A stretch of DNA of 64,000 bases from Candidatus Omnitrophota bacterium (GTDB lineage: Bacteria; Omnitrophota; Gorgyraeia; Pluralincolimonadales; Pluralincolimonadaceae). The stretch lies in assembly GCA_041653595.1 (NCBI GenBank), contig JBAZFB010000004.1, positions 14,757 to 78,756 of the forward strand, read 5' to 3'. Shown piece by piece: positions 19,987 through 42,137 of the stretch. The notes beneath the pieces were generated by a model. The model made no database searches. It was not told the DNA's origin and worked only from the letters and a program-made list of their open reading frames with translations. How positions within the stretch are numbered: position 1 is the first letter of the stretch; the number at the start of each line of letters is the position of its first letter. Made by a program: the position numbers and the translations under genes.

Positions 19987-21012
19987 ATGAAGAAAGTCAC
20001 CTTTAAAGAGATCTCCAGGATAGTCGGCGTGTCCCCGATGCACGTGTCGAGGGCCCTCGCAGGGCACCCTTACGTAAAGGAGGAGCTGCGCCGCGAGATA
20101 TCCAAGGTAGCCAAGAAGCTCAACTACAGCATCAATCCCTTCGGCCGCGGCCTGTCCAAGAATATCCAGATGAAGGCCCGGATGATATGCGTCCTGACCA
20201 AATACGGGAACTTCTTCCGGACCGAGTATTTCGTCAACCTGATAGACGCGATCAGCAGCAATTGCAGGGCGAAGGGATACGACGTGATAATGGCGAGCCT
20301 CACGGACGATGAAAGCGGAAACATAAAGAGGCTCAAGAACCTGGTCAGTTATTATAAGGCGGGCATAATAGAGGGGTTCGTCTTCATCGCGCCGGACCTC
20401 GACGCCGCGGAAGGCTTTTTCCTGCGCGCGGAAAAGGTCAATTTTGTCTGCGCCGGCAGCAGGATAGAAGCGGCTACGAAATATGTCGACGTCGATAATT
20501 TCAGGGCGGGCTCCGAGGTCGGCGGCTATCTTATCCGGCTGGGCCACAGGAGGATAGCTTTTGTGAAAGGCCTCGAGAAGAGGCGCGATAGCCGGGAGAG
20601 GCAGCAGGGTTTCTTGAATGCCCTGACGGCAAGCGGGATCGCGCCGGACGAAGGCCTATTCATTTCCGGCGATTACAGTATTCCCGGCGGGAAGAAGGCG
20701 ACAGCGGAATTGTTTTCGCGCAAGAAGAAGCCGGACGCGATATTTTATGCTAACGACCTTATGGCCTACGGCGGCCTCGAATTTTTCAAGGAAAAAAAGA
20801 TAAGGGTCCCTCGCGAGATCTCTATCGTGGGTTTTGACGACCTCGCTGCGTCGTCTCGGACCGAGCCCCCGCTTACGACCGTGAGGCAACCTTATAAGGA
20901 GATGGGAGAGGCGGTCATGGAGGCCGTATCCCACCCGGAATTCGCTTCAAGGATGATAACGGCGAAATTAATAATAAGGAAGAGCTGCGACAAGCCAAGG
21001 AGAATTGGATGA
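19987..21012 (+). CDS. LacI-family transcriptional regulator (second copy).
   Basis: HTH 'VTFKEISRIVGVSPMHVSRALAGHPYVKEELRREISKVAKKLNYSIN' followed by a PBP-like domain. 4-nt ATGA overlap with the downstream hydrolase gene. Confidence 0.9.
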   Translation: MKKVTFKEISRIVGVSPMHVSRALAGHPYVKEELRREISKVAKKLNYSINPFGRGLSKNIQMKARMICVLTKYGNFFRTEYFVNLIDAISSNCRAKGYDVIMASLTDDESGNIKRLKNLVSYYKAGIIEGFVFIAPDLDAAEGFFLRAEKVNFVCAGSRIEAATKYVDVDNFRAGSEVGGYLIRLGHRRIAFVKGLEKRRDSRERQQGFLNALTASGIAPDEGLFISGDYSIPGGKKATAELFSRKKKPDAIFYANDLMAYGGLEFFKEKKIRVPREISIVGFDDLAASSRTEPPLTTVRQPYKEMGEAVMEAVSHPEFASRMITAKLIIRKSCDKPRRIG

Positions 21013-24000
21013 GGACTACCGCGGGATACAGGATCGGTAACGACAACGAATTCATAATTGAAAATTACAACTATTCCAAGGCCTTTTCGAGTTTCCTGCC
21101 CGGCATAGCCGGCGTCGACGGCATCCCGATGTGGGTCTTTTACGTGAACAGGAACCAGGCGGTATGCAGCCTCGGCATAGAGAGCAAGGACCGCGCGATG
21201 ATGGAATTTCTGCCCGCGAATTTCGCCTACCAGCTGGTCGGGACGCAGGGCTTCAGGACCTTTATCAAGATAATTGGCAAAAACGGTTTTACGCTGTATG
21301 AGCCGTTCAGGGTATACGAGAAAGAAGAGGGGTATATCCCGTCCCAGGTGATGGCTATTACCCCTTATTCCGTGACGCTAAGGGAGGTCCACGAGAAGCT
21401 GGGCATGAGCGTCGAGGTCAGGTATTGCAACGTCGTCCAGGAGCCGTTCCCCGGCCTCATAAGGCAGGTGGAGATAAAGAATATCTCCGGGAGGGCCGTG
21501 AAGATCGAGCTCCTCGACGGGATGCCGCAGGTGATACCCTTCGGGATGGACGATTCCAGCCTGAAGAAGATGAAATACCTCGTCAAATCCTTCAGTTACG
21601 CGGAAAACCTCGGGGAAAAGATACCTTATTTCCATATCAGGACGACCCATGAGGACGGCCCTGAGGTGGCCATGGTAAAGAGAGGCCATTATTACGCGTG
21701 CGTCAGGGTGGAGGGAGGCAAGGCTGAGTTGAAACGGCCCCTTATAGATGCCTCGCAGATCTTCGGAATTAGGAAGGACATGATCCTCCCCTCGCGCTTT
21801 AACGTGAGGTCGAAATTCATTTATGATACTAAGGGCGAACTGACCAGCGGGGAGTTCTCTTCGGCCATGTGCCATGAGGATGCGGCACTCAAGCCTTCGG
21901 AGACGCTCACTTTATACTGCGTCTGCGGCACCCTGGATTCTGTCGGCGGCACGAAAGAGGTGGCGCGCGCCCTCACCGCGGATTTCGCGGAGACGCAGCT
22001 CAAGAAAAACCGGACCGTCATCGAATCGATCATGGGCTCTTCCCTGGTCATAAGCGAAGACGAGAAGTTTGACAGGTATTCCGCCCAAAATTTCCTCGAC
22101 AACGTGCTGCGCGGAGGCTTCCCCCTGACGGTAACGAAAGACAGGAGCAAAGTCTTCTATGTCTATTCCAGGAAGCACGGCGACCTGGAGAGGGATTATA
22201 ACCAGTTCTACACTTCCCCGACCCTTTATTCCCAGGGCGATTCCAATTACAGGGACGTCAACCAGAACAGGCGAAACGACACGTTCTTCAATCCCGACGT
22301 CGGGATGTCCAACATTATCAACTTCATAAACTTCATACAGATGGACGGGTTCAATCCGCAAGGCGTGGACGGAGTGACATTCATATATAAGGGAGACAAA
22401 AAACTTCTCATAAGCCTTTTCGGATCCGGCGCGGAAAAGATGGAGGAGTTTTTCAGGAAGCCTTTCGCCCCGGGCGACATCTTCAAGTTCGCCGGATCCA
22501 ATTCTATCAAGGCCGCCGTATCGAACGGGGAGATGCTCTCGAAGATACTCGAGCGCTCGGACGCCGGGCAGAATTCGCGGCATATCGACGGTTTCTGGAG
22601 CGACCACTGGTCCTATAATATGGACCTCATCGACAGTTTCCTGGCCGTCTATCCGGACAGGAGGAAGGAGCTATTCTCCGGGCGCAGGGATTTCACGTTC
22701 CACGACAGCCCTTACGTCGTCCTGCCGAGGCAGGATAAATACGTCTTGTGGGACGGAAAACCGGTCCAGTTGGGCGCGGTAAAGGTCGACGAGGAGAAGA
22801 GGAAGATGATCGCCGGCAGGAGATCGGAGAAGACGCTCGTCCGCAAAGTAAACGGCAAAGGAGATGTTTACAGGACCGACCTCATCACGAAACTCCTTAT
22901 AATCGCGGTCAATAAGATAAATTCCATCGGGCCGGACGGCTGCGGCATCGAGATGGAGACGGATAAGCCGAACTGGTGCGACGCGCTTAACGGACTTCCG
23001 GGGCTCTTCGGGTCGTCCTCGAACGAGACATTTGAACTGAAGAGGCTGATAACCATGATCTCGAAGAACCTTGGCGGCAAGGCCCTCGAGCTTCCCGAGG
23101 AAGCCGTCGAGGCGATCAGGGATTCTAAAGACGCGCTAAACGGTTATCTCGGCGGGAGACTGGACGATCTCGGCATATGGGACAAACTGACCGCGATAAA
23201 AGAAAATTTCAGGAGAAAGACGAGATGCGGGATAATCGGCAGGCTCATCCCGGTCCCGGCAGACGAAATATCCGGCTACCTTGCGCTCGCGGCAAAGAGG
23301 GTCCAGGCGGCCATAAACAAAAGTTTTGACGAGAAGACCGGACTTTATTCCGGGTATTTTATCAATGTCCCGGCCGAATACGAACAGATCACGGTCACGG
23401 ACAGCGCCGGCAGGGAGGTCCCGAAGGCCAACCACAAGGGCCTGCCGTGCATCAGGGTGATGAAATTCAACTCCCGGACGCTGCCGTTATTCCTGGAGGC
23501 GCAGGTCCACGCGCTGAAGGCGGAAGAGGACAGATCTGTCGCCGCGAGGCTGCACTACAACCTCATGAAGAGCGGCCTGGTCGACAAAAAATTGAAGATG
23601 TTCTCGGTCAATGCCTCGCTTGAAAAGGAGCCGTATGAGATAGGCAGGACCAAGACGTTCAATCCGGGCTGGCTCGAGAACCAGTCGATCTGGCTTCACA
23701 TGGAATATAAATACTTGCTCGAGTTATTGAAGGCCGGGCTTTACAAAGATTATTACGCGAATTTCAAGGACGTCCTCGTGCCGTTCCTGAGGCCAGAGGT
23801 CTACGGAAGGAGCATCTTCGAGAACTCGTCTTTCATCGCGGGCAGCGTCCATCCGGACAAGAAAGTCCACGGACAGGGGTTTTACGCGAGGCTCTCCGGC
23901 TCGACCGCAGAATTCGTCCATATGTGGCTTATAATGATGACCGGAGGAAGGCCGTTTTCGCTCGACGCAAACGGCAAACTGGTCTTCAGCCTCTCCCCGG

Positions 24001-24299
24001 TCCTTAAGGGCGGGATGTTCCTGAAAAAAGACCGCAAGGCGGAGCACTATTCTCCCGAAGGAAAATTGCAGAAAGAGACCGTCAAGAAAGGCACATTGAA
24101 ATTCATGCTGCTTGGCAGCATACCCGTGACTTATATCAATCCCCGGCGGAAGGATATATTCGGGGGCGGCAAAGGGGCTAAGTACGCGCTGACGCTCGAG
24201 GACGGCGCGGTGAAGGAATTCACCGGCAGCGTCCCGGAACCGTATTCGGCCCTTGTCAGGGAAAGAAAAATAAAAGAGATAAAGATGTATCTTGATTAA
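21009..24299 (+). CDS. Large (1096 aa) cytoplasmic glycoside hydrolase/phosphorylase-like protein of the (alpha/alpha)6-toroid type, family unassigned.
   Basis: No signal peptide. N-terminal beta-rich region followed by a helical-repeat region (…LLELLKAGLYKDYYANFKDVLVPFLRPEVYGRSIFENSSFIAGSVHPD…GQGFYARLSGSTAEFVHMWLIMM) typical of six-hairpin glycosidases (GH94/GH65/GH116-like). Confidence in the exact product is low. Confidence that this is a real CDS is high. Confidence 0.55.
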   Translation: MRTTAGYRIGNDNEFIIENYNYSKAFSSFLPGIAGVDGIPMWVFYVNRNQAVCSLGIESKDRAMMEFLPANFAYQLVGTQGFRTFIKIIGKNGFTLYEPFRVYEKEEGYIPSQVMAITPYSVTLREVHEKLGMSVEVRYCNVVQEPFPGLIRQVEIKNISGRAVKIELLDGMPQVIPFGMDDSSLKKMKYLVKSFSYAENLGEKIPYFHIRTTHEDGPEVAMVKRGHYYACVRVEGGKAELKRPLIDASQIFGIRKDMILPSRFNVRSKFIYDTKGELTSGEFSSAMCHEDAALKPSETLTLYCVCGTLDSVGGTKEVARALTADFAETQLKKNRTVIESIMGSSLVISEDEKFDRYSAQNFLDNVLRGGFPLTVTKDRSKVFYVYSRKHGDLERDYNQFYTSPTLYSQGDSNYRDVNQNRRNDTFFNPDVGMSNIINFINFIQMDGFNPQGVDGVTFIYKGDKKLLISLFGSGAEKMEEFFRKPFAPGDIFKFAGSNSIKAAVSNGEMLSKILERSDAGQNSRHIDGFWSDHWSYNMDLIDSFLAVYPDRRKELFSGRRDFTFHDSPYVVLPRQDKYVLWDGKPVQLGAVKVDEEKRKMIAGRRSEKTLVRKVNGKGDVYRTDLITKLLIIAVNKINSIGPDGCGIEMETDKPNWCDALNGLPGLFGSSSNETFELKRLITMISKNLGGKALELPEEAVEAIRDSKDALNGYLGGRLDDLGIWDKLTAIKENFRRKTRCGIIGRLIPVPADEISGYLALAAKRVQAAINKSFDEKTGLYSGYFINVPAEYEQITVTDSAGREVPKANHKGLPCIRVMKFNSRTLPLFLEAQVHALKAEEDRSVAARLHYNLMKSGLVDKKLKMFSVNASLEKEPYEIGRTKTFNPGWLENQSIWLHMEYKYLLELLKAGLYKDYYANFKDVLVPFLRPEVYGRSIFENSSFIAGSVHPDKKVHGQGFYARLSGSTAEFVHMWLIMMTGGRPFSLDANGKLVFSLSPVLKGGMFLKKDRKAEHYSPEGKLQKETVKKGTLKFMLLGSIPVTYINPRRKDIFGGGKGAKYALTLEDGAVKEFTGSVPEPYSALVRERKIKEIKMYLD

Positions 24300-27183: not shown

Positions 27184-27232
27184 TTCTGTAGTACAACTGA
27201 TTACGCAAATGAATAAAAAAGCAGGGAATAAA

Positions 27233-31784
<4,552 letters not shown>

Positions 31785-31792
<8 letters not shown>

Positions 31793-33224
31793 TACAAAGA
31801 GATTCCTGAAAATAAAACGGGAGGCCTCATCTTACCGCGAGGTATGCGAGCGCGTAAAGGATTACAGAGAGGTGGCTGTCCTGCGCCCGGAGGAGAAGTC
31901 GAAAGACCAGAGCTCTCGCTGCATGGACTGCGGAGTGCCGTTCTGCCATTGGGGCTGCCCGATCGGGAATTATATACCGGAGTGGAACGACCTGATGTTT
32001 CGCGGCCAATGGAAAAAGGCAATAGACGTCCTGGGCGCGACGAATAACCTGCCCGAGATAACCGGCAGGATCTGCCCGGCACCGTGCGAATACGCGTGCG
32101 TCCTCGGGATAAACGATGACCCTGTCACTATACGGGAAGACGAGCTCGATATTATAGAATATGCTTTCAAAGAGGGAGGGCTCAAGCCCAACCCGCCGAA
32201 AAAACGCACCGGCAAGAAAGTCGCCGTCATAGGTTCCGGACCGTCAGGCCTTGCCTGCGCCGACCAGTTGAATAAAGCCGGGCATAAAGTCACGGTATTC
32301 GAGAAGGACGACAAGATAGGCGGAATACTGCGCTACGGCATACCCGATTTCAAGCTCGACAAATCCGTCCTCGACAGGCGCATAAAGATATGGAAGAAAG
32401 AGGGGATAGAATTCAAGACATCCGCTGATGTAGGCGCCGATTATAAAACGTCCAAACTGAAGAAGGATTTCGACGTGATCGTGCTTGCCGGCGGGAGCCG
32501 CTTCCCGCGCGACCTCAAGATACCCGGCCGCGAGCTGGGCGGAATACATTTCGCGATGGATTTCCTCGTCCAGTCGAATAATAGGGTTTCCGGAATCAAG
32601 GTACCTTCCGGAAAGCTCATCGACGCGAAGGGTAAGAAGGTTGTCGTTATCGGCGGCGGTGACACAGGCGCTGACTGCGTAGGCACCGCGCACAGGCAGG
32701 GCGCGTCATGCATCGTCCAGATAGAGCTCTTGTCCCAGCCTCCGGAATGCCGCACAAAGGATTTTCCGTGGCCGAAATATCCGATGCTTTTGAAGACAAC
32801 TACGAGTCATCAGGAGGGCGGCGAACGCTATTGGTCGGTCTCGACCAAGAAGTTTGAGGGCGCCGGCGGAAAGGTCAAGAAACTTTCCTGCGTAAAGGTC
32901 GAGATAGGCCGTGACGATAAAGGCTGCATGATGATAAAAGACGTCCCGGGAAGCGGATTTGAGATAGAAGCGGACCTTGTCGTCCTCGCGCTCGGGTTTA
33001 TGCACCCCGAGAAAGGGCTCATCTCACAGCTCGGCGTCGAGCTCGACCCGCGCGGGAACGTAAAGACCGACGAGCATTATCTTACCTCGGTAAAAGATGT
33101 CTTCGCCGCAGGCGATATGAGGAGGGGCCAGTCGCTCATCGTCTGGGCCATCTCCGAAGGCCGCCGCGCCGCCCACTCCATCGACAAATACCTCATGGGC
33201 TCCACCCGCCTGCCGGCCATTTGA
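31785..33224 (+). CDS. gltD: Glutamate synthase small subunit (NADPH-dependent, GltD-like).
   Basis: Two Cys clusters (CMDCGVPFCH…CP, CPAPCEYAC). FAD/NAD Rossmann motifs (VAVIGSGPSGLACA, VVVIGGGDTGADC). 8-nt overlap with gltB. Confidence 0.9.
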
Positions 33225-33230
33225 GCCGTC

Positions 33231-33259
33231 TTGACAATCCCCGCATTTTGCCGTAAAAT
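33231..33259 (+). promoter_or_regulatory. Sigma-70-like promoter: TTGACA, 17 nt spacer, TAAAAT, for the hyf-like operon.
   Basis: TTGACA at 33231-33236, TAAAAT at 33254-33259, in the 117 bp gap after gltD. Confidence 0.45.
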
Positions 33260-33341: not shown

Positions 33342-35168
33342 ATGGAATATCTCAAAATAGGTCTTACATTACTATTTGACCCGCTGTCTTTGTTTTTCCT
33401 GGCGGTCATAGCGCTCGTCTCGGTGCCGTCGGCGGTCTACGCGATAGGCTACTTAAAAGGGGACCATTCACGCGGCGGGACGCTCCTCGCGTGGTCGCTT
33501 ATGGCCGCGTTCGTCCTGTCTATGGCGCTCGTAGTCACGGCCGGCAATGCCTTTCTTTTCCTCGTCGCATGGGAGCTGATGTCGCTCCTTTCGTATTTCC
33601 TCGTCGTCTTCGACCACAAGCATGAAAAATCAGTGAAGGCAGGCACTATCTACATAGTCATGACCCACATCGGGACGGCATTTATTACCGCGGCCTTCCT
33701 TATTATTTTCAAGTACGCCGGGTCGTTCGAATTTTCCGCGTTCAAACAGGCCTGCCTCTCGATGCCCGGTAACATAAAAGATATCGTTTTTATCTTCTTA
33801 TTGATAGGGTTCGGTACGAAGGCGGGGATCGTGCCGCTTCACATCTGGCTTCCTTACGCGCATCCCCAGGCGCCCAGCCACATCTCAAGCATAATGTCCG
33901 GTGTTATGATAAAGACGGCCATCTACGGGATGGTCAGGTTCATCATCTTTATCCTCGGCGTCAATTCGTTGTGGTGGGGCAACCTCGTGCTGGTCGTCGC
34001 GATAGTTTCGTGCCTCGTTGGCGTCATTTATGCGCTTATGGAACATGACCTGAAGAAGCTCCTGGCCTATCACAGCGTCGAGAATATCGGGATCATCCTT
34101 CTCGGCGTCGGCGCCTCGATGGTTTTTATTAAAATGGGAAATCCGGTCCTTGCCGTATTCGCGCTCTGCGCCGGCCTGTATCATTTGGTTAACCACGCTG
34201 TATTTAAAGGCCTTTTATTTTTGGGCGCGGGCGCAGTCTATAAAGCTACCGGGACGCGCAATATGGAAGACCTCGGCGGGCTGATAAAGCTGATGCCGTG
34301 GACCGCGGCGACATTCCTTGTCGGCGCGATGGCGATATCGGCGCTGCCTCCGTTGAGCGGGTTCGTGAGCGAGTGGCTTACCCTCCAGGCGTTCTTTTTT
34401 GGCGCGCTCGCTTCGGCGGGAAGCTATAAGATATTCTTAAGCGTATGCGCGGCGATGCTCGCCCTGACAGGCGGCCTTGCCGCCTCGTGTTTCGTGAAGG
34501 CCTTCGGCATTACGTTCCTGGCGATGCCGAGGAGCGACCGCGCGAGGGAGGCAAAAGAGGTATCGCTTTCGATGAAATCAGCCCTTGTAGCCATGTCCAT
34601 ATTTACGGTCATCCTTGGGCTTGCGGCTTCGGTGATGATCAAGATATTGGTCGTCGTCTCGGGCTGCGCGACAGGCATCGAAACCTCCGGCATGAGCTTT
34701 ACCCTGAATAATTTCACGCTCGCGCCGCAGCCTGGAACATATCTTTCGGTCCCGCTCATAACCCTTGCGCTTATATTCGCAGCCGGCGCCGGCTTGGCCC
34801 TCGTCCGTACCGGACGCAAGCGCGTTTGCGAGGGAAAGACATGGGGCTGCGGCTATTACGACCTGGACTCAAGGACAGAATATACCGCGACCGCCTTTTC
34901 AAAGCCGTTCCGGATAGCGTTCAGTTTCTTTTTACGGCCGTACAGCAAGACAGAGAAGATAAGGGAATCGTTCTATCACGTAAAATCATTCAAGTACGAG
35001 GTCTTTACCACCCCTGTCTTCAGGCGTTATATATACGAGCCTGCGCTTAACCTTATCGTCAAGACGGCGCACGCGATGAAGCGTATACAGCCGGGCAGCA
35101 TCCACGTCTATATCGCCTATATTTTTGTCACGATACTGGCGCTTGTTATTTTTATGGGGAGGCCCTGA
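33342..35168 (+). CDS. HyfB/HycC-like proton-translocating membrane subunit (NuoL family) of a group-4 hydrogenase-related complex.
   Basis: Aligns along its length with E. coli HyfB (e.g. GTKAGIVPLHIWLPYAHPQAPSHISSIMSGVMIKTAIYG vs [39 protein letters not shown]). Confidence 0.85.
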   Translation: MEYLKIGLTLLFDPLSLFFLAVIALVSVPSAVYAIGYLKGDHSRGGTLLAWSLMAAFVLSMALVVTAGNAFLFLVAWELMSLLSYFLVVFDHKHEKSVKAGTIYIVMTHIGTAFITAAFLIIFKYAGSFEFSAFKQACLSMPGNIKDIVFIFLLIGFGTKAGIVPLHIWLPYAHPQAPSHISSIMSGVMIKTAIYGMVRFIIFILGVNSLWWGNLVLVVAIVSCLVGVIYALMEHDLKKLLAYHSVENIGIILLGVGASMVFIKMGNPVLAVFALCAGLYHLVNHAVFKGLLFLGAGAVYKATGTRNMEDLGGLIKLMPWTAATFLVGAMAISALPPLSGFVSEWLTLQAFFFGALASAGSYKIFLSVCAAMLALTGGLAASCFVKAFGITFLAMPRSDRAREAKEVSLSMKSALVAMSIFTVILGLAASVMIKILVVVSGCATGIETSGMSFTLNNFTLAPQPGTYLSVPLITLALIFAAGAGLALVRTGRKRVCEGKTWGCGYYDLDSRTEYTATAFSKPFRIAFSFFLRPYSKTEKIRESFYHVKSFKYEVFTTPVFRRYIYEPALNLIVKTAHAMKRIQPGSIHVYIAYIFVTILALVIFMGRP

Positions 35169-35169
35169 C

Positions 35170-36045
35170 ATGAAAACCGCGCTTATCTTCATCCAGGTCG
35201 CGATGCTCATCGTTTTATCGCCTCTCGTTAGCGGCATAATAAGGAAGATAAAGAATAATATCAGGATGCGCAAAGGCGCCGGCATATTCCAGCCGTATTA
35301 TAACCTTGCTAAGCTTTTCGCGAAGGAAGAGGTCGTATCGGATACTACGTCGTGGATATTCAGGGCCGCGCCGTTTGTCGTCCTTGCCTCATCCGTGTGC
35401 GCGTTGTCGCTCGTGCCTGTATTCTCGCCGGCGCTTTCGTTCTCCAATATGGGCGATTTCCTCTCCTTAATATTTATTTTGGCGCTCGGCAGGTTCTTTA
35501 TCGCCCTCGCCGGACTCGACGCGGGGAGCGCGTTCGGCGGAATGGGCTCATCGCGGGAGATGTTCATATCGACATTCGTGGAGCCCGTGGCCTTGCTGTC
35601 GATCTTCGCGGTCTCGCTCAACGCGGGTTCGACGAACCTGGCGTCGGTCAGCGCGCCTGCCGTTCTGCGGTTGTCATCCATCATCGCGGCGCTCTCGCTT
35701 TTTATAGTGACTATCGCCGAGACCTCGCGCATCCCGGTCGATAACCGGGAGACCCACCTGGAATTGACGATGATACACGAGGCGATGGTCCTGGAATATT
35801 CAGGCAGGCCGCTCGCCCTTATAGAATTGGCCTCGCACATAAAGCAGATATTGTTCTTTTCCCTGATAGCCGCGGTCGTCATCCCGTGGGGCGATTTCGC
35901 CCTCAAGATGGCGGCGATCATCATAGCGGTGAGCCTGATAGAGGTATCGGTGGCTAAGATGAGGCTGTTCAGGGCCGTGGATTTCCTGAGCTTCGCGTTC
36001 GTCCTCTCGATAATGGCGGTCATCGTCTCCGCGGCGGGGTACTGA
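35170..36045 (+). CDS. HyfC/HycD-like membrane subunit (NuoH family).
   Basis: Multi-TM protein. The N-terminus MKTALIFIQVAMLIVLSPLVSGIIRKIKNNIRMRKGAGIFQPYYNLAKLF matches the NuoH/HycD pattern. ATG 1 nt after the upstream stop. Confidence 0.8.
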   Translation: MKTALIFIQVAMLIVLSPLVSGIIRKIKNNIRMRKGAGIFQPYYNLAKLFAKEEVVSDTTSWIFRAAPFVVLASSVCALSLVPVFSPALSFSNMGDFLSLIFILALGRFFIALAGLDAGSAFGGMGSSREMFISTFVEPVALLSIFAVSLNAGSTNLASVSAPAVLRLSSIIAALSLFIVTIAETSRIPVDNRETHLELTMIHEAMVLEYSGRPLALIELASHIKQILFFSLIAAVVIPWGDFALKMAAIIIAVSLIEVSVAKMRLFRAVDFLSFAFVLSIMAVIVSAAGY

Positions 36046-36046
36046 T

Positions 36047-36667
36047 ATGTTCATGAATATATCCTTATTCGCGATACTCATGATGGCCTTCGCCATGGTC
36101 GCGGCGAAACGGGTGACCGCCCTGATAAACGGTTTCCGCGCCCAGTCGCTATTCCTGTTCCTTTTTATGTTAGTGCTGGCGCGCAGGGCCGATTCGACGG
36201 AATTATATATAGTCGCCGCGCTCCTCTTCCTGATAAAAGTCATATTGATACCGCGCATGCTGCACAGGGTGGTAAAAAGGATAAAAGTGAGCGAAGATCT
36301 CGGGCTTTCCGCGAACCCGACCGTCTCGATCTTCGCAGCCATCGTGCTGGCTTACCTGGCGTACGCGTTCACCGGGATGATAGCCGGTGTTCCGGCGTTC
36401 TTCGTCTCTATCTCGATAACGCTCATCGGCTTATTTATCATGATATTCAGGATGAAGGCGCTGGCCCAGATAGCCGGCCTGCTCATAATGGAGAACGGGA
36501 TGTTCCTCGCCGCAGCCAGTGTCTCCGGCGGGATGCCGTTCATAGTCGAAATAGCGATATTCTTCGATGTCTTCCTCGCGGTGATAATACTCGGTATTTT
36601 CGTCTATAAGATAAACAGCCTGTTCACGCATATAGACGTGGACAAGCTCACTGAGCTGAAAGGTTGA
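36047..36667 (+). CDS. HyfE-like small hydrophobic membrane subunit.
   Basis: 206 aa, 6-7 TM helices. Position and size match HyfE of hydrogenase-4 type operons. Sequence-level identification is weak. Confidence 0.55.
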   Translation: MFMNISLFAILMMAFAMVAAKRVTALINGFRAQSLFLFLFMLVLARRADSTELYIVAALLFLIKVILIPRMLHRVVKRIKVSEDLGLSANPTVSIFAAIVLAYLAYAFTGMIAGVPAFFVSISITLIGLFIMIFRMKALAQIAGLLIMENGMFLAAASVSGGMPFIVEIAIFFDVFLAVIILGIFVYKINSLFTHIDVDKLTELKG

Positions 36668-36670
36668 CGA

Positions 36671-38071
36671 ATGAATAGGATAAAGGCATTGGGCGTCATC
36701 AACGCGGTATTGCATCTCGCGATATCGGCCGCTTCTGTATTCCTTGCCTCGTATGTGCTAAAGGAAGGTCCGGTCAGCGGTTTTGATTTCTTCTATATCG
36801 ACGCGCTGAGCGCTTTCTTTATCCTTACGATATCCGTAGTTAACCTTGCTGCGGCGCTTTATTCGATAGGCTATATGGAGAAGGATGTCGAGGCGGGGAC
36901 GATAAAGGAGAGGAAGGCGGGCGCCTATTACGGGCTCTTTAATCTCTTCGCGTTCACTATGTATTTCGTGACGGTCGTGAATAACCTCGGCATGCTCTGG
37001 GTCGCGATCGAGATGACGACCCTCGTTTCCGCGTTCCTGGTGGGTTTCTACAACAACAAGAGATCCATCGAGGCGGCCTGGAAATATATAATAATATGCT
37101 CGGTAGGCATAACGCTTGCCCTTTTGGGGACGATATTATTTTATTATACCGCCTCGCGCGACGGGGGGATATCGAGCCTGAACTGGACCGACATGATGGA
37201 CGCGGCGGGAAAGCTCGACCCGAAGGTGTTGAAGGTCGCGTTCCTTTTCATCCTTGTCGGATACGGGACCAAGGCCGGCCTCGCGCCCATGCATACCTGG
37301 CTCCCTGACGCGCACAGCCAGGCGCCGGCGCCGATAAGCGCGCTCCTCTCCGGCGTGCTCCTTAAGACGGCTATCTACGCGATAATCAGGTTCACTTCCA
37401 TAATAAATATCTGCATCGGCACGTCATATTCGGACGGGCTGCTTATCTTCTTCGGGCTCCTTTCACTCGGCGTATCCGCGGCGTTCGTGATCGTCCAAAA
37501 GGACATCAAGCGCCTGTTCGCGTACAGCAGCGTCGAGCATATCGGCGTCATAACTTTCGGCCTGGGCATGGGCGGCGCGCTCGGGCTTTTCGGCGCGCTC
37601 TTCCACGTATTCAATCACGCGGTGACGAAATCACTCATGTTCTTCAGCGCCGGCAATGTGGTGAAAAAATATAAGACGAGCGAGATGGGCGCGATAAGGG
37701 GAGTGCTAAACGCCATGCCTTTTACCGGCATCATGCTGATAATAGGCGCGTTCGCCCTGACGGGTTCCCCGCCGTTCTCGGTATTTTTCAGCGAAGTGAT
37801 GATACTCATCTCGGGTTTCGGGCAGGGGCTTTATCTCCAGTCGGCGCTCTTCCTGCTCTTTTTGGCGATAATATTCGGCGCGGTCATACACCATATAAGT
37901 AAAATAGCCTTCGGAAAGAAGCCGCAGGATATGCCGGTCTCCGGCGAACCCTTGAGCGGGAAGATGGCGTTCGTACTCCTGCTGTTATTCATATGCGCGC
38001 TCGGGTTCAAGCTGCCCGCGCTTTTCAGCGGGCTTATTACTTCGGCGATAGAGATAATAAGAGGGGCATGA
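36671..38071 (+). CDS. HyfF/HyfD-like antiporter-type membrane subunit (NuoM/NuoN family).
   Basis: 'GTKAGLAPMHTWLPDAHSQAPAPISALLSGVLLKTAIYAIIRF' is the conserved NuoL/M/N motif. 466 aa polytopic protein. Confidence 0.8.
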   Translation: MNRIKALGVINAVLHLAISAASVFLASYVLKEGPVSGFDFFYIDALSAFFILTISVVNLAAALYSIGYMEKDVEAGTIKERKAGAYYGLFNLFAFTMYFVTVVNNLGMLWVAIEMTTLVSAFLVGFYNNKRSIEAAWKYIIICSVGITLALLGTILFYYTASRDGGISSLNWTDMMDAAGKLDPKVLKVAFLFILVGYGTKAGLAPMHTWLPDAHSQAPAPISALLSGVLLKTAIYAIIRFTSIINICIGTSYSDGLLIFFGLLSLGVSAAFVIVQKDIKRLFAYSSVEHIGVITFGLGMGGALGLFGALFHVFNHAVTKSLMFFSAGNVVKKYKTSEMGAIRGVLNAMPFTGIMLIIGAFALTGSPPFSVFFSEVMILISGFGQGLYLQSALFLLFLAIIFGAVIHHISKIAFGKKPQDMPVSGEPLSGKMAFVLLLLFICALGFKLPALFSGLITSAIEIIRGA

Positions 38072-39597
38072 TGGGCTTCAGGGATGAATTATATATAGAC
38101 GTAAAACCGGAAGAGTTCAGGAGCAAGTGCCTGGAACTCCACAAAAAACTTTCTTCTCCTGTGATGATGTATTTCGCGGTCGACGAGAGGAAAGAGAAGG
38201 GATCATTTGCGGTCTATTGCGCCTTCCTCGACGCGGCGGATAAGAGGTGGGCATTTGTCAGGATGTACCTGCCCCAGGACGGACCCGCATTCGAGTCGGT
38301 CTCAAAAGACATATTTTCCGCGTCCCTCTTCGAAAGGGAGATAAGGGAGATGTTCGGGATCGAGCCGCGGGGGAATCCCGACCTGAGAAGGCTCAATCTC
38401 CACGAGGAGGTCTGGCCCGAGGGATTTTATCCCCTGCGCAAGGATTTTACCCCTCCGGAGCGCGCGCGGAAAGCCGAGGGTTCGTACAAATTCAGGAAAG
38501 TCGAAGGAGAAGGCATCTTCGAGGTGCCGGTCGGCCCGGTCCATGCCGGGATAATCGGCCCGGGCCATTTCAGGTTCAGCGCGGCCGGTGAACCGATAAT
38601 AAATCTTGAGGCGAGGCTCGGGTTTACCCATCGCGGGGTCGAGAAGATCTTTGAAGGTATGCCTTCGGCCGGGTCGGCTGAGGCTGTTTGTTTTTCCGAG
38701 CGCGTCTCAGGCGATTCCGCGTTCGCTTACAGCACGGCATATTGCTCGGCAGTAGAGAAGATATACGGTATACGCGTCCCGGAACGGGCGCAGTACATAA
38801 GGGCGATATTCCTCGAGCTTGAGAGGATGTATAACCACGCGAACGATATCGGGGGAATGGCCCTCGACGTGGGTTTCAGTTTCCCGAACGCGTTCGCCTC
38901 GGTAGTAAAAGAAAAGATCCTTGCCCTCAACGAGAAGATGTCCGGCAGCAGGTACCTCAAAGGCGTAAATACCGTAGGCGGAGTGAACAGGGACCTGAGC
39001 GGGTCCGAGAGGATGGCCCTGGCGGATTCGCTTGCCGGGATATCTAAGGACCTCGAAGAGCTCAAGGCCATGCTCAAATCAAGCATATCCTTCATGGACA
39101 GGGTCGATAAGACAGGCATATTAAAGAAGAAGACCGCCGCAGACCTCGGCATAGTCGGCCTCGCGGCGCGCGCGTCGGGCATCCCGATGGACCTGAGGAA
39201 TACTTTTCCCGGCGTTTACGCCGCCGCGAATTTCAACCTCATAAAAGAGGAAGAGGGCGATGTCCTCGCCCGCCTTAACCTGCGCCTGCGGGAAGCCTCC
39301 GAATCGGCGCGCCTCATAAAAGAATTTGTCAGGATCATGAACCAGGGCGACACATCGCCCGCGAAGAAGATCGAACCGGCGGCGGGCTGCGGGATCGGCC
39401 ATGCCGAAGGCTGGCGGGGCCCGGTCCTCTTCTGGATAAAGACAGGCGCCTCAGGCCGGATAGAGAGATGCAAGATAGTCGACCCGTCTTTCCATAACTG
39501 GCAGGGGTTGTGTTTCGCGGTCCTGGGGAATATCATCCCCGATTTCCCTCTGTGCAATAAGAGCTTCGACCTATCGTATCCGGGGAATGACCTATGA
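38068..39597 (+). CDS. Fused NuoC-NuoD-like 'large subunit' (HycE/HyfG homolog) lacking the [NiFe]-binding cysteines, i.e. Ehr-type.
   Basis: N-terminal NuoC-like region, then NuoD/hydrogenase large-subunit motifs (GPVHAGIIGPGHFRF…ARLGFTHRGVEKIFEG). The L1 motif position reads ERVSGDSAFAYSTAY (expected ER-x-C-G-x-C-x-x-x-H). The C-terminal L2 reads VDPSFHNWQG (expected DPC-x-x-C). ATGA overlap with the upstream gene. The ORF-track start 37993 was rejected because it lies inside hyfF. Confidence 0.85.
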   Translation: MMGFRDELYIDVKPEEFRSKCLELHKKLSSPVMMYFAVDERKEKGSFAVYCAFLDAADKRWAFVRMYLPQDGPAFESVSKDIFSASLFEREIREMFGIEPRGNPDLRRLNLHEEVWPEGFYPLRKDFTPPERARKAEGSYKFRKVEGEGIFEVPVGPVHAGIIGPGHFRFSAAGEPIINLEARLGFTHRGVEKIFEGMPSAGSAEAVCFSERVSGDSAFAYSTAYCSAVEKIYGIRVPERAQYIRAIFLELERMYNHANDIGGMALDVGFSFPNAFASVVKEKILALNEKMSGSRYLKGVNTVGGVNRDLSGSERMALADSLAGISKDLEELKAMLKSSISFMDRVDKTGILKKKTAADLGIVGLAARASGIPMDLRNTFPGVYAAANFNLIKEEEGDVLARLNLRLREASESARLIKEFVRIMNQGDTSPAKKIEPAAGCGIGHAEGWRGPVLFWIKTGASGRIERCKIVDPSFHNWQGLCFAVLGNIIPDFPLCNKSFDLSYPGNDL

Positions 39598-40100
39598 AAA
39601 ATATATTTAAGAACAGAATGATCAAGGGGATGGTCACCATCCCGGTAGGGAAAGACGCCGATGAGGCCGATAAGCTCGGCGTAGAATTAAAAGCGCGGAT
39701 ACAAAAGAGGTTCGGCAGGTCTTTCCATATACGGGAGGTCGATACCGGTTCATGCAACGGCTGCGAATCCGAGATAATCGCGACCACGAACCCCATTTAT
39801 GATATCCAGCGGTTCGGTATCGACTTTGTCGCGTCCCCGCGCCATGCCGACGCGCTGCTCGTGACCGGACCGGTATCGAAGAATATGGCGCTGGCGCTGC
39901 GCAGGACCTACGATGCGATGGCCGAGCCGAAATTCGTCATAACCCTGGGCGATTGCGCCCTCGACGGCGGCGCGTTCAAGGATTCATATTACGTCGCCGG
40001 CGGGGTAAAAGAGATACTTCCCGTAGACCTGCATATCCCCGGCTGCCCGCCGTCGCCTCTTGCCATAATAAAATCACTCTTGGACTTTCTAAGCGCATAG
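39594..40100 (+). CDS. NuoB-like small subunit (HycG/HyfI homolog) retaining the [4Fe-4S] ligands.
   Basis: Cys ligands at GSCNGCE, GDCA and IPGCPPSP. ATGA overlap with the large-subunit gene. Confidence 0.85.
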   Translation: MKNIFKNRMIKGMVTIPVGKDADEADKLGVELKARIQKRFGRSFHIREVDTGSCNGCESEIIATTNPIYDIQRFGIDFVASPRHADALLVTGPVSKNMALALRRTYDAMAEPKFVITLGDCALDGGAFKDSYYVAGGVKEILPVDLHIPGCPPSPLAIIKSLLDFLSA

Positions 40101-40118: not shown

Positions 40119-40733
40119 ATGGAAGACCGCCATTCGGACGATACTCTAAAAGTTATCAATCGCCGGCACAGCGTCAGGCAATTCCTGGAGAGGCCGGTCG
40201 ACGATTCCCTTATTAAGGCGGTGCTCGACGCCGCGAATAAGGCGCCGTCGGCGCATAACCAGCAGTCGTGGCGTTTCATCGTCGTGCGCGGCGAGAAAAA
40301 GCAGCAGCTGGCCCAGCTCGTTGTGGATAAGTCCCCGGGATTCCCGAAGCCGTCCTCTTCCATACTCCGTATGGCGGCGAGGAGCATAAGCAACGCTCCG
40401 GTCGTCATCGCGGTCATGAACACGGGCACGCTGATAAGCCGCGGGACAGAACTGTTCAAGATAGAAAAAGACAAGGCGAAGGATTTTTTCCGGACGATGG
40501 AGATACAAAGCTCTTCCGCGGCGGTCGAGAACCTGCTTATCGCCGCGACCTCCCTCGGCCTCGGCAGCGTATGGCTCGGGATATTGTTCTTGATAAAAGA
40601 TGAGATCCTGTCGTTCTTCGGTGAGGCAAAAGGGGAATTTATGGCGGTCATCCCAGTCGGTTATCCGGCCAAAGAACAGGAAGGCCCCAAGAAAAAATCG
40701 CTGGAATATGTCGTGAGGTATATTGAAAAATGA
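40119..40733 (+). CDS. Nitroreductase-family flavoprotein.
   Basis: 'INRRHSVRQF…LDAANKAPSAHNQQSWRFIVV' is the nitroreductase fold signature. 18 nt after the NuoB-like gene. Confidence 0.75.
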   Translation: MEDRHSDDTLKVINRRHSVRQFLERPVDDSLIKAVLDAANKAPSAHNQQSWRFIVVRGEKKQQLAQLVVDKSPGFPKPSSSILRMAARSISNAPVVIAVMNTGTLISRGTELFKIEKDKAKDFFRTMEIQSSSAAVENLLIAATSLGLGSVWLGILFLIKDEILSFFGEAKGEFMAVIPVGYPAKEQEGPKKKSLEYVVRYIEK

Positions 40734-41152
40734 CAAAAGAAGATATTATCAAGTTCATCAACGCGAATCTCGTCTGCCATCTCGCCACAACCGAAGGGGA
40801 CCAGCCCCACGTCAGGGGCATGATGGCGTACCGGGCGGACGAGAAAGGGATAATATTCCACACCGGTAATTTGAAAGACCTGTTCAAGCAGGTCTGCGAC
40901 AACCCCCTGGTCGAGGCCTGTTTCTTCGATCCCAATACCAACACGCAGGTCAGGGTGAAGGGCAAGGCCGTCATAATATACGACGATAACCTGAAGAGGG
41001 AGATCGTCGCGGCAAGGCCGTTTTTGAAACCCTGGGTCGAGGAGCTCGGCCTCGATCTGATAGTGACCTTCAGGATAACGGATTGCCGCGCCTGCGTCTG
41101 GACGTTCGGGACGAATTTTGCGCCCAAGGAATACGTCAAGATCTCCGACTGA
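40730..41152 (+). CDS. Pyridoxamine 5'-phosphate oxidase-like FMN-binding split-barrel protein.
   Basis: The pattern 'INANLVCHLATTEGDQPHVRGMMAYRADEKGIIFHTGNLKDLFKQV…EACFFD' is typical of PNPOx-like/GSP26-like proteins. 4-nt overlap with the nitroreductase gene. Confidence 0.65.
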   Translation: MTKEDIIKFINANLVCHLATTEGDQPHVRGMMAYRADEKGIIFHTGNLKDLFKQVCDNPLVEACFFDPNTNTQVRVKGKAVIIYDDNLKREIVAARPFLKPWVEELGLDLIVTFRITDCRACVWTFGTNFAPKEYVKISD

Positions 41153-41157
41153 TACTT

Positions 41158-42117
41158 ATGCTGACGATCGGAAAGCTCAACCTGAAGTCCAGCCTCATCC
41201 TCGCCCCTATGGCGGGCATAACCGACCTGCCGTACCGCATGCTCAACCGCAAGTTCGGCGCCGAGCTCGCATTTACCGAGATGGTCAACGCGCGCTCGTT
41301 AAGCTACAGCAATGTCAAGGCGCTCGAGATGCTCGGATCGGCGAAAGGCGACAGGCCGCTCGGCATCCAGCTCGTCGGGAACGAGCCCGAATATCTTAAC
41401 CGCGCGGTAGAAAAACTCCATAAATACAGGTTCGATATCCTCGATTTCAACGCAGCCTGCCCGGAGAGAAAGGTCACCGCAAAGGGAGAGGGCGCCGCCC
41501 TTCTTAAAGACCTGAAAAAATTAAAACGCCTCCTTAAGATACTCGTCAGGGAATCGAAATGGCCGGTCACGGTCAAGCTTCGCTCCGGTTGGGACAAGAA
41601 TAGCGTAAACGCCGCGGATGCGGCTTTGCATGCCGAGGACGCGGGCGTGGCCGCAATATTCATCCACGGCAGGACGCGCAACCAGCTCTACGGCGGCCAG
41701 GCCGATTACGGCATAATAAGGAAGGTAAAAGGCGCCGTCAGGGTCCCGGTCATCGGAAGCGGCGACGTCTTGTCAGGGCCGCTCGCGAAGAAGATGTTCG
41801 ATGAGACCGGCTGCGACGCGATACTCCTTGCGCGCGGCGCGCTGGGGAACCCATGGCTGTTCAAAGAGGTAGAGGCTTATCTTAAGGATGGCTCTGTGCC
41901 GGAAAGGCCGTCAAAAGAGGTCATAATAAAGACGATGGTTAGTCATCTCAATGCCTCGGTCAAATGCTTCGGCGCGAAGAGGAGCATCCCGTTCTTCCGG
42001 AAATTCTTCTGCTGGTATACCAAGGGGCTCGATAACGTCCGCCCGCTGCGCGTAAAAGCATGCGCCGCTGAGACAAAGAAAGAAATGCTTGATATAATAA
42101 ACGAAATTAACATATAA
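41158..42117 (+). CDS. dus: tRNA-dihydrouridine synthase.
   Basis: 'LILAPMAGITDLPYRMLNRKFGAELAFTEMVNARSL…GIQLVGNEP…NAACP' are Dus family motifs. The ORF-track start 41083 overlaps the upstream gene. ATG at 41158 chosen. Confidence 0.85.
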   Translation: MLTIGKLNLKSSLILAPMAGITDLPYRMLNRKFGAELAFTEMVNARSLSYSNVKALEMLGSAKGDRPLGIQLVGNEPEYLNRAVEKLHKYRFDILDFNAACPERKVTAKGEGAALLKDLKKLKRLLKILVRESKWPVTVKLRSGWDKNSVNAADAALHAEDAGVAAIFIHGRTRNQLYGGQADYGIIRKVKGAVRVPVIGSGDVLSGPLAKKMFDETGCDAILLARGALGNPWLFKEVEAYLKDGSVPERPSKEVIIKTMVSHLNASVKCFGAKRSIPFFRKFFCWYTKGLDNVRPLRVKACAAETKKEMLDIINEINI

Positions 42118-42137
42118 TCTAATAAGGAAGGGCTAAT

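Follow-up and report, generated by a model that had tools for sequence, protein, structure and literature searches.

We analysed a 64,000-nucleotide (nt) stretch of DNA from a Candidatus Omnitrophota bacterium (contig JBAZFB010000004.1; hereafter the window, with positions counted from its first letter) and examined in it the gene ehrL, at positions 38068 to 39597. Its product is very probably the large peripheral subunit of an Ehr (energy-converting or Ech-hydrogenase-related) complex. Complexes of this type are membrane machines of six subunits that are related to hydrogenases and to complex I and have lost the [NiFe] site. Alignment places other residues, namely, S214, S217, S503, and G506, at all four positions that carry the metal-ligating cysteines in hydrogenases. 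The observation is correct and is not new, as the Ehr class has been described since about 2005. The class is defined by a large subunit that is related to those of group 4 hydrogenases, lacks the CxxC pairs, and stands close to group 4f (PMC10284858, PMC4378227, PMC6349859, PMC7894505, PMC3569383). It was first noted in Geobacter (EhrA-D, EhrL, and EhrS; GSU0739-0745) and was later reported in Nitrospira, Sulfobacillus, Saganbacteria, Margulisbacteria, Melainabacteria, and the candidate phyla radiation (CPR); our literature search found no paper linking Omnitrophota with Ehr.

Replacement of the nickel-iron ligands

The open reading frame (ORF) at 38068-39597 on the forward strand translates into 509 amino acids (aa) that include GPVHAGIIGPGHFRF, HRGVEKIFEG, and ERVSGDSAFAYSTAY; the NuoD-like core recognised in an earlier, sequence-only reading of this DNA is present with HRGVEKIFEG. 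Four short elements of the gene bear on the metal site:

38698 to 38733, forward strand: L1 position, E211-R-V-S214-G-D216-S217-A-F-A-Y221-S, aligned to HycE RvCGiCgfaH
39565 to 39594, forward strand: true L2 position, F-D-L-S503-Y-P-G506-N-D-L, followed directly by the stop codon, aligned to HycE LDPCYSC (DNA read directly)
39475 to 39507, forward strand: IVDPSFHNWQG (residues 470-480), a conserved element without a metal-ligand motif, aligned to HycE raatyanwptl and Nqo4 rapsfvnlqsl
38557 to 38559, forward strand: codon of G164 in the beta1-beta2 loop, a Glu in relatives, inside the low-confidence model stretch 159-164

At L1, a phmmer alignment sets sdrvCgiCgfahstay of HycE opposite servSgdSafaystay of EhrL, and both L1 cysteines are thus replaced by serines (S214 and S217). 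At L2, HycE sLDPCYSC lies opposite sFDLSYPG at the extreme C terminus of EhrL, the replacements being S503 and G506; the nearest Cys-bearing relatives read NKSFELCYxCxDR at this position and likewise end there. EhrL accordingly departs from both the group 4 L1 motif, RxCGxCxxxH, and the L2 motif, (D/E)(P/L)CxxCxx(H/R). The sequence-only reading had also held all four cysteines to be replaced, and the HycE alignment bears out that claim together with its placement of L1. Its L2 site was misplaced, however: IVDPSFHNWQG belongs to an element shared with NuoD. When the columns are checked by alignment, L2 lies elsewhere yet also lacks a CxxC pair, so the view of EhrL as a nonhydrogenase descendant of group 4 hydrogenases, which we infer from the missing ligands, holds with the corrected columns.

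The family and fold assignments agree with this descent. Pfam finds a NuoC-type Complex1_30kDa domain at residues 11-130 and a NuoD-type Complex1_49kDa domain, and NiFeSe_Hases is matched with 27.9 bits (cutoff, 25.8) in its N-terminal part, across 66 positions only. The nearest solved relative in a phmmer search of the PDB is HycE of Escherichia coli formate hydrogenlyase (7z0s_E; E value, 1.9e-65), and MbhL (3.6e-39), Nqo4 (2.6e-38), and MbsL (6u8y_L; 1e-26) are matched as well. An AlphaFold2 model built from 56 relatives reaches a predicted local distance difference test score (pLDDT) of 93.4, with residues 159-164 as the sole low-confidence stretch; its top Foldseek match is again 7z0s_E (template modelling score, 0.93; 32% identity), and nothing closer has been solved. 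EhrL is thus modelled with the HycE/NuoCD fold.

Public annotation does not convey the altered site. A protein 100% identical to EhrL, deposited from a Candidatus Omnitrophota genome, is named NADH-quinone oxidoreductase subunit C at NCBI and Ni,Fe-hydrogenase III large subunit at JGI, and the loss of the ligands shows in neither name. For one Hyq-like homologue, the deposited name is hydrogenase expression protein HypE.

Conservation and spread of the altered site

Conservation was followed in a close set of the 120 nearest homologues (61-100% identity, mostly Omnitrophota) and in a distant set of 129 full-length representatives; a search of 1.84 billion cluster representatives gave 7,817 relatives, which are 50%-identity cluster representatives of hydrogenases, NuoD, and Ehr proteins together. 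In the close set, G-D at 215-216 is invariant (120/120) and S217 is found in 101/120, while the C-terminal block C496-N-K-S-F-[D/N]-L-S-Y-x-G-N-D-L is near-invariant, with S503 and N507 each in 119/120, G506 in 116/120, and position 505 variable. About 93 of the 129 distant representatives lack all four cysteines, and 21 keep CC|C(C). Among the 93, the replacements recur: S214 in 69 (Ala in 19), D216 in 77, S/T217 in 63, S503 in 87, and G506 in 82. Since the same replacements are found in the close homologues (120/120) and in about 93/129 distant representatives, chance or error does not account for them. EhrL keeps R212 (38701-38703), which corresponds to the Arg in the RxCGxC motif of hydrogenases; 73/120 close homologues have Cys there (ECVSGDS).

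Because the replacement residues are themselves conserved, the site is a new one under maintenance rather than one in decay. A decaying pseudohydrogenase without function, for which the loss of all four metal ligands could be taken to speak, is almost certainly not what this gene encodes: the ORFs are intact, with translational coupling, the AlphaFold2 model is of high confidence, 120 homologues keep the substituted site nearly unchanged, the cassette has been retained in different domains of life, and Ehr proteins have been detected in Geobacter (PMC7894505).

In a neighbor-joining tree of 126 representatives, calculated without support values, the Cys-less proteins form essentially one clade, which adjoins the Cys-bearing 4f-type relatives and contains EhrL; one CCCA sequence falls within it, as does a 504-aa Falsiroseomonas protein (P0259) with the Hyq cysteine pattern. 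Identity to EhrL is 58% in a Saganbacteria locus (L010), 43-44% in Nitrospira (L014 and L017), and 37% in P0259. A scan of one genome per species gave 594 relatives, of which the best 80 loci were taken; these span more than 15 phyla, including Omnitrophota, Saganbacteria, Nitrospirota, Acidobacteriota, Firmicutes, Actinobacteria, CPR, Thaumarchaeota, and Methanosarcina, among others. The cassette thus recurs in bacteria and archaea, in hundreds of genomes. Its genes are arranged as A-B-C-D-L-S in about 50 of the 85 related loci and as S-A-B-C-D-L in the remainder, and its flanks differ even between close relatives. The genes that do recur in the flanks of the 85 loci are generic ATP-binding cassette (ABC) ATPases (13), ArsR-like regulators (12), and sensor kinases (11). 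The ArsR-like helix-turn-helix regulator lies upstream by the cassette in loci of several phyla (L008, L022, L034, L039, L042, L057, L058, L061, L062, L065, L072, and L077) and is absent from the window. Two Nitrospirota contigs (L035, 10001-19817; L076, 4005-13877) each carry two complete Ehr cassettes in tandem, with pocket variants SGDT and SGTS.

A further substitution sets the clade of EhrL apart. In [NiFe] hydrogenases, the loop Glu (GPxH...EPGHFR) is a proton-transfer residue beside the metal site. The loop motif of relatives, GPxHAGxIEPGHFRF, is GPVHAGIIGPGHFRF in EhrL, with G164 in place of a Glu that 88/93 of the Cys-less and 21/21 of the Cys-bearing representatives have. Position 164 is the only one at least 90% conserved in both groups that EhrL lacks. 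In the Omnitrophota clade (120 proteins), it is Gly in 106, Pro in 12, and Ala in 2, and it is also Gly in one Saganbacteria locus and one actinobacterial locus (L072).

The ehr operon, its small subunit and its membrane subunits

The gene ehrL is the fifth of six genes that lie head to tail at 33342-40100:

33342 to 35168, forward strand: ehrA, NuoL/HyfB-like antiporter-type membrane subunit, 608 aa (Pfam Proton_antipo_M, 1.1e-53)
35125 to 36045, forward strand: ehrB, NuoH/HycD-like membrane subunit, 306 aa (Pfam NADHdh, 5.3e-39)
36047 to 36667, forward strand: ehrC, HyfE-like (NuoK/J-type) membrane subunit, 206 aa (NCBIfam hydrogenase-4 membrane subunit, 3.3e-26; weak Pfam Oxidored_q2)
36671 to 38071, forward strand: ehrD, NuoN/M/HyfF-like antiporter-type membrane subunit, 466 aa (Pfam Proton_antipo_M, 5.3e-53)
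38068 to 39597, forward strand: ehrL, fused NuoC/NuoD-type large subunit without [NiFe] cysteines, 509 aa (Pfam Complex1_30kDa, Complex1_49kDa, and short NiFeSe_Hases)
39594 to 40100, forward strand: ehrS, NuoB/HycG-like small subunit, 168 aa, short form, one [4Fe-4S] site (Pfam Oxidored_q6, 8.3e-31)
33231 to 33259, forward strand: promoter-like site, TTGACA-17 nt-TAAAAT, upstream of the operon in the 117-nt gap after gltD (consensus match only)

The operon is translationally coupled, with ATGA four-base overlaps read in the DNA at the ehrD stop/ehrL start and at the ehrL stop/ehrS start. The promoter-like site scores 11/12 in a 10-kb scan and is joint best with a site at 42089-42118. A Pfam/NCBIfam scan found no NuoI/HycF-like, formate dehydrogenase, or NuoEFG gene in the six-gene operon, and no hyp maturation gene was seen among the scanned ORFs of the 64-kb window, the part of the genome covered.

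The NuoB-like partner, EhrS, was said in the sequence-only reading to keep its four cysteines, and we confirmed this: C54, C57, C121, and C151 occupy the positions of the HycG and MbhJ cluster ligands in the alignment and do not vary among 10 diverse relatives, and the predicted [4Fe-4S] site is intact. HycG is the top solved relative (4.4e-38). Small subunits in the family come in two forms. The long form has 240-350 aa, a fused NuoI-like ferredoxin domain, and 4-9 Cys (for example, L022, 11510-12391, and L026, 11524-12258), while the short form, of about 160-180 aa, retains just some 20 N-terminal residues of that domain. The Cys-bearing (4f-type) loci that we saw all have the long form except one from Chloroflexota (L083; 249 aa, no N-terminal Cys) and one from Ectobacillus (L070; 165 aa). 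We rejected the idea that loss of the ferredoxin domain is special to the Omnitrophota clade, as short forms are common in Nitrospira, Rokubacteria, Actinobacteria, and Hyq.

The membrane subunits retain the features of ion-translocating relatives. EhrA, whose gene type heads the cassette in relatives, scores 644 bits with the NCBIfam hydrogenase-4 subunit B model, slightly below the cutoff of 667, and EhrD scores 517 bits with the hydrogenase-4 subunit F model. EhrB has HycD as its top PDB match (7z0s_D; 8.9e-39) and keeps the HycD-type acidic loop motifs vEP, aEtsRiPvDnrE, and EYSG. Aligned to MbhH, EhrD keeps the Glu of transmembrane helix 5, the Lys of helix 7 (in tKaGlaPmHtWLPDAH), the Lys of helix 8, and one Glu of helix 12. 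As judged by alignment, the Ehr membrane subunits keep the charged residues by which Mbh, formate hydrogenlyase (FHL), and complex I translocate ions.

Proposed function

These features together suggest that the Ehr complex neither makes nor uses H2 at a Ni-Fe center and that it most likely still acts as a coupling machine of the complex I/Mbh type. An electron would pass from a soluble low-potential donor, probably ferredoxin, to the EhrS cluster, with the donor docking in the place of the missing NuoI-type module; Omnitrophota are ferredoxin-based fermenters. From there, it would move on to an acceptor in the remodelled polar pocket (S214, D216, S217, S503, and Y504) at the EhrL/EhrS/EhrB interface, and the transfer would drive movement of H+ or Na+ via EhrA-D or run in reverse.

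Several observations weigh against a coupling function. With the loop Glu lost, the chemistry of this clade may differ from that of other Ehr complexes, or there may be no redox coupling at all. In complex I, His38 and Tyr87 (Thermus thermophilus Nqo4 numbering) are ligands of the quinone head group; in the alignment to 2fug_4, they lie opposite I163 and G215 of EhrL. EhrS has no N-terminal ferredoxin domain or relay, and flank ORF clustering revealed no dehydrogenase or ferredoxin gene that recurs in the flanks of the 85 related loci and could mark a conserved redox partner. The identification with the named systems is also indirect, as Geobacter GSU0739-0745 and Azorhizobium AZC4355-4360 were matched by published description and the sequence links run via L010, L014/L017, and P0259.

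Some of the same facts would fit a redox-independent, Mrp-like H+/Na+ antiporter, in which EhrL and EhrS form a cap for assembly, gating, or redox or oxygen sensing via the lone Fe-S cluster and the pocket holds water or a cation. The clade has none of the recognised catalytic features left, with the four Cys ligands, the loop Glu, and the ferredoxin-type relay all gone, and it has no quinone ligands either. The residues typical of antiporters are intact, no gene for a redox partner is linked, and the replacements in the pocket are small and either polar or acidic (Ser, Asp, Ser/Thr, and Ser). We nevertheless consider such a transporter unlikely, given that the EhrS cluster cysteines are invariant and the pocket is strongly conserved, which seems to exceed what a passive cap requires; moreover, we know of no complex-I-type peripheral arm that lacks redox turnover. 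A narrower version, to which we likewise give little credence, would apply to the Omnitrophota/Saganbacteria branch of Ehr: its peripheral arm would turn over no substrate, the conserved Ser/Asp/Ser/Ser/Tyr pocket would bind a cation or water, and the Fe-S cluster, as a redox sensor, would gate an Mrp-like ion transporter. If true, nature would have produced in this branch an "uncoupled" form of the complex I coupling device.

Genomic neighbourhood

The genes directly upstream of the operon, at 27209-33224, encode the large subunit of a glutamate synthase (1527 aa) and a 479-aa NAD(P)H/Fe-S flavoprotein that resembles GltD; the promoter-like site separates gltB/gltD from the ehr operon. Downstream, at 40119-41152, a nitroreductase-family gene begins 18 nt after ehrS and is followed by an overlapping PNPOx-like gene. 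Both of these families usually bind flavin mononucleotide, and both genes may share the ehr operon transcript. Neither gltB/gltD nor the nitroreductase and PNPOx-like genes were accepted as linked partners, as they are not kept beside the cassette in close relatives. The remaining genes of the window are concerned with sugar utilisation and housekeeping. Positions 1-27087 form a large carbohydrate-utilisation cluster with glycosidases of families GH2 (1517 aa) and GH35 (931 aa), two LacI regulators, an ABC sugar transporter, and a DUF5060 protein; Glucodextran_C/SLH-like wall-binding modules make up three standalone proteins (301, 339, and 333 aa) and the C terminus of the GH2 enzyme, and a 1096-aa ORF at 21009-24299 has no Pfam match.

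Significance

Ehr/Hyq complexes are among the most widespread complex I relatives without an assigned function, with the cassette found from Omnitrophota to Thaumarchaeota, and their frequent annotation as hydrogenase or NADH dehydrogenase distorts metabolic reconstructions of uncultured lineages. The present locus offers nothing new in kind, and its interest is modest. It does show the complex cleanly and in a pared-down form, with six genes, a single Fe-S cluster, and neither a relay domain nor the loop Glu. Its value lies in getting the annotation right and in a short list of pocket residues that are conserved (S214, D216, S/T217, S503, Y504, G506, and D508), from which mutagenesis or structural studies of a tractable homologue could start.

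Comparison with known systems

The Q-module of complex I (NuoB/C/D/H) shares the fold and architecture of the Ehr peripheral arm and also lacks the Ni-Fe cysteines. It differs in that EhrL is without the quinone-ligand His and Tyr, the operon has neither a NuoI relay nor an N-module, and the cluster motif is of the hydrogenase type, CxxC, rather than a tandem CC. EhrL might still be viewed as the NuoD-type subunit of a reduced complex I or as part of a quinone, methanophenazine, or polysulfide reductase of the Fpo or Mbx/Mbs type; the NCBI name and the top NCBIfam match, NuoD, point that way, and quinone was proposed as the partner of Hyq by Sprecher et al. (PMC3357923). We regard this assignment as highly improbable. 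EhrL falls below the cutoff of every curated NCBIfam model, including the NuoD models NF004739 (213 versus 360) and TIGR01962 (190.7 versus 459) and the FpoD model NF040602 (159 versus 600), Ile163 and Gly215 take the places of the quinone ligands, and NuoA, NuoI, NuoJ, NuoE-G, and the Mrp-type subunits of Mbx/Mbs are all absent from the operon. An Mbx/Mbs operon has 13 genes, among them those for Mrp-type small subunits and a NuoI-like subunit. The locus has six genes only, with no such subunits, and the MbsL match (1e-26) is far weaker than that to HycE (1.9e-65). The sequence-only reading had called the protein Ehr/Mbx/Fpo-like; the six-gene cassette and the neighbor-joining tree uphold Ehr, the FpoD score argues against Fpo, the MbsL match and operon content argue against Mbx, and our comparisons support Ehr as the only one of the three labels that fits.

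E. coli FHL (HycE/HycG/HycD/HycC; 7Z0S) provides the top solved relatives of EhrL, EhrS, and EhrB. Unlike the Ehr complex, it has a Ni-Fe site, a 32-aa cleaved C-terminal extension, the electron-input subunits HycF, HycB, and FdhF, and a single antiporter-type subunit. Closer still are the group 4f [NiFe] hydrogenases (Ehf; for example, those of Thermincola, Desulfotomaculum, and Methylocystis), the nearest Cys-bearing relatives, which share about 40% identity, the gene order, the motif GPxHAGxIEPGHFRF, and an NKSF.L.Y..DR/L C terminus without a cleaved extension; they differ in keeping the four cysteines and the Glu and in having a small subunit with a fused two-cluster ferredoxin domain.

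Rhizobial Hyq (hyqBCEFGI), known from Azorhizobium caulinodans and other alphaproteobacterial diazotrophs, is Ehr under another name. It has six genes in an order identical to that found here; HyqG is a NuoC::D fusion of 504 aa without both CxxC pairs; and HyqI is a short NuoB-like protein with Cys at 55, 58, 112, and 152, nearly the positions of the four in EhrS (PMC3357923). This likeness matters for the possibility that the complex is still a hydrogenase with an unconventional catalytic site, as was proposed for the Cys-less Hyq endo-hydrogenase of A. caulinodans, since hyq deletion mutants, in the work of one laboratory, lose H2 recycling and evolution in vivo (PMC2650096, PMC3357923) and the Hyq-type protein P0259 lies within the same Cys-less clade as EhrL. 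The Hyq evidence, however, is genetic and physiological and does not come from purified enzyme, and its authors call a Ni-Fe site "uncertain, if not unlikely" (PMC3357923). Moreover, the Cys residues conserved in HyqG (C258, C491, and C497), mapped via P0259 (C261, C491, and C497), correspond to A265, C496, and L502 of EhrL, so that one of the three is kept, and the loop Glu is missing. No other cysteines offer an alternative metal site: none is conserved near the pocket family-wide, and only C21, C468, and C496 are conserved in the clade. A hydrogenase activity of this kind is therefore very unlikely for EhrL. Further differences are that Hyq belongs to the nif regulon of microaerophiles, comes with a regulator gene, and keeps the loop Glu (P0259), while the host here is of the anaerobic sugar fermenter type.

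The Ehr complexes themselves remain the best match. The differences are ones of detail: the Omnitrophota/Saganbacteria clade has Gly where about 95% of other Ehr proteins keep the loop Glu, an EhrA-1 is listed for Geobacter (PMC7894505) where there is one NuoL-like gene here, and no formate dehydrogenase or NuoEF genes lie nearby such as the proposal of a formate dehydrogenase-linked Ehr (FDH-Ehr) involves (PMC6349859). Shared with Ehr are a large subunit without CxxC, a four-Cys, NuoB-like small subunit for one [4Fe-4S] cluster, NuoL-, NuoH-, HyfE-, and NuoN-like membrane subunits encoded in a single six-subunit cassette, and a position of the large subunit inside the Cys-less clade.

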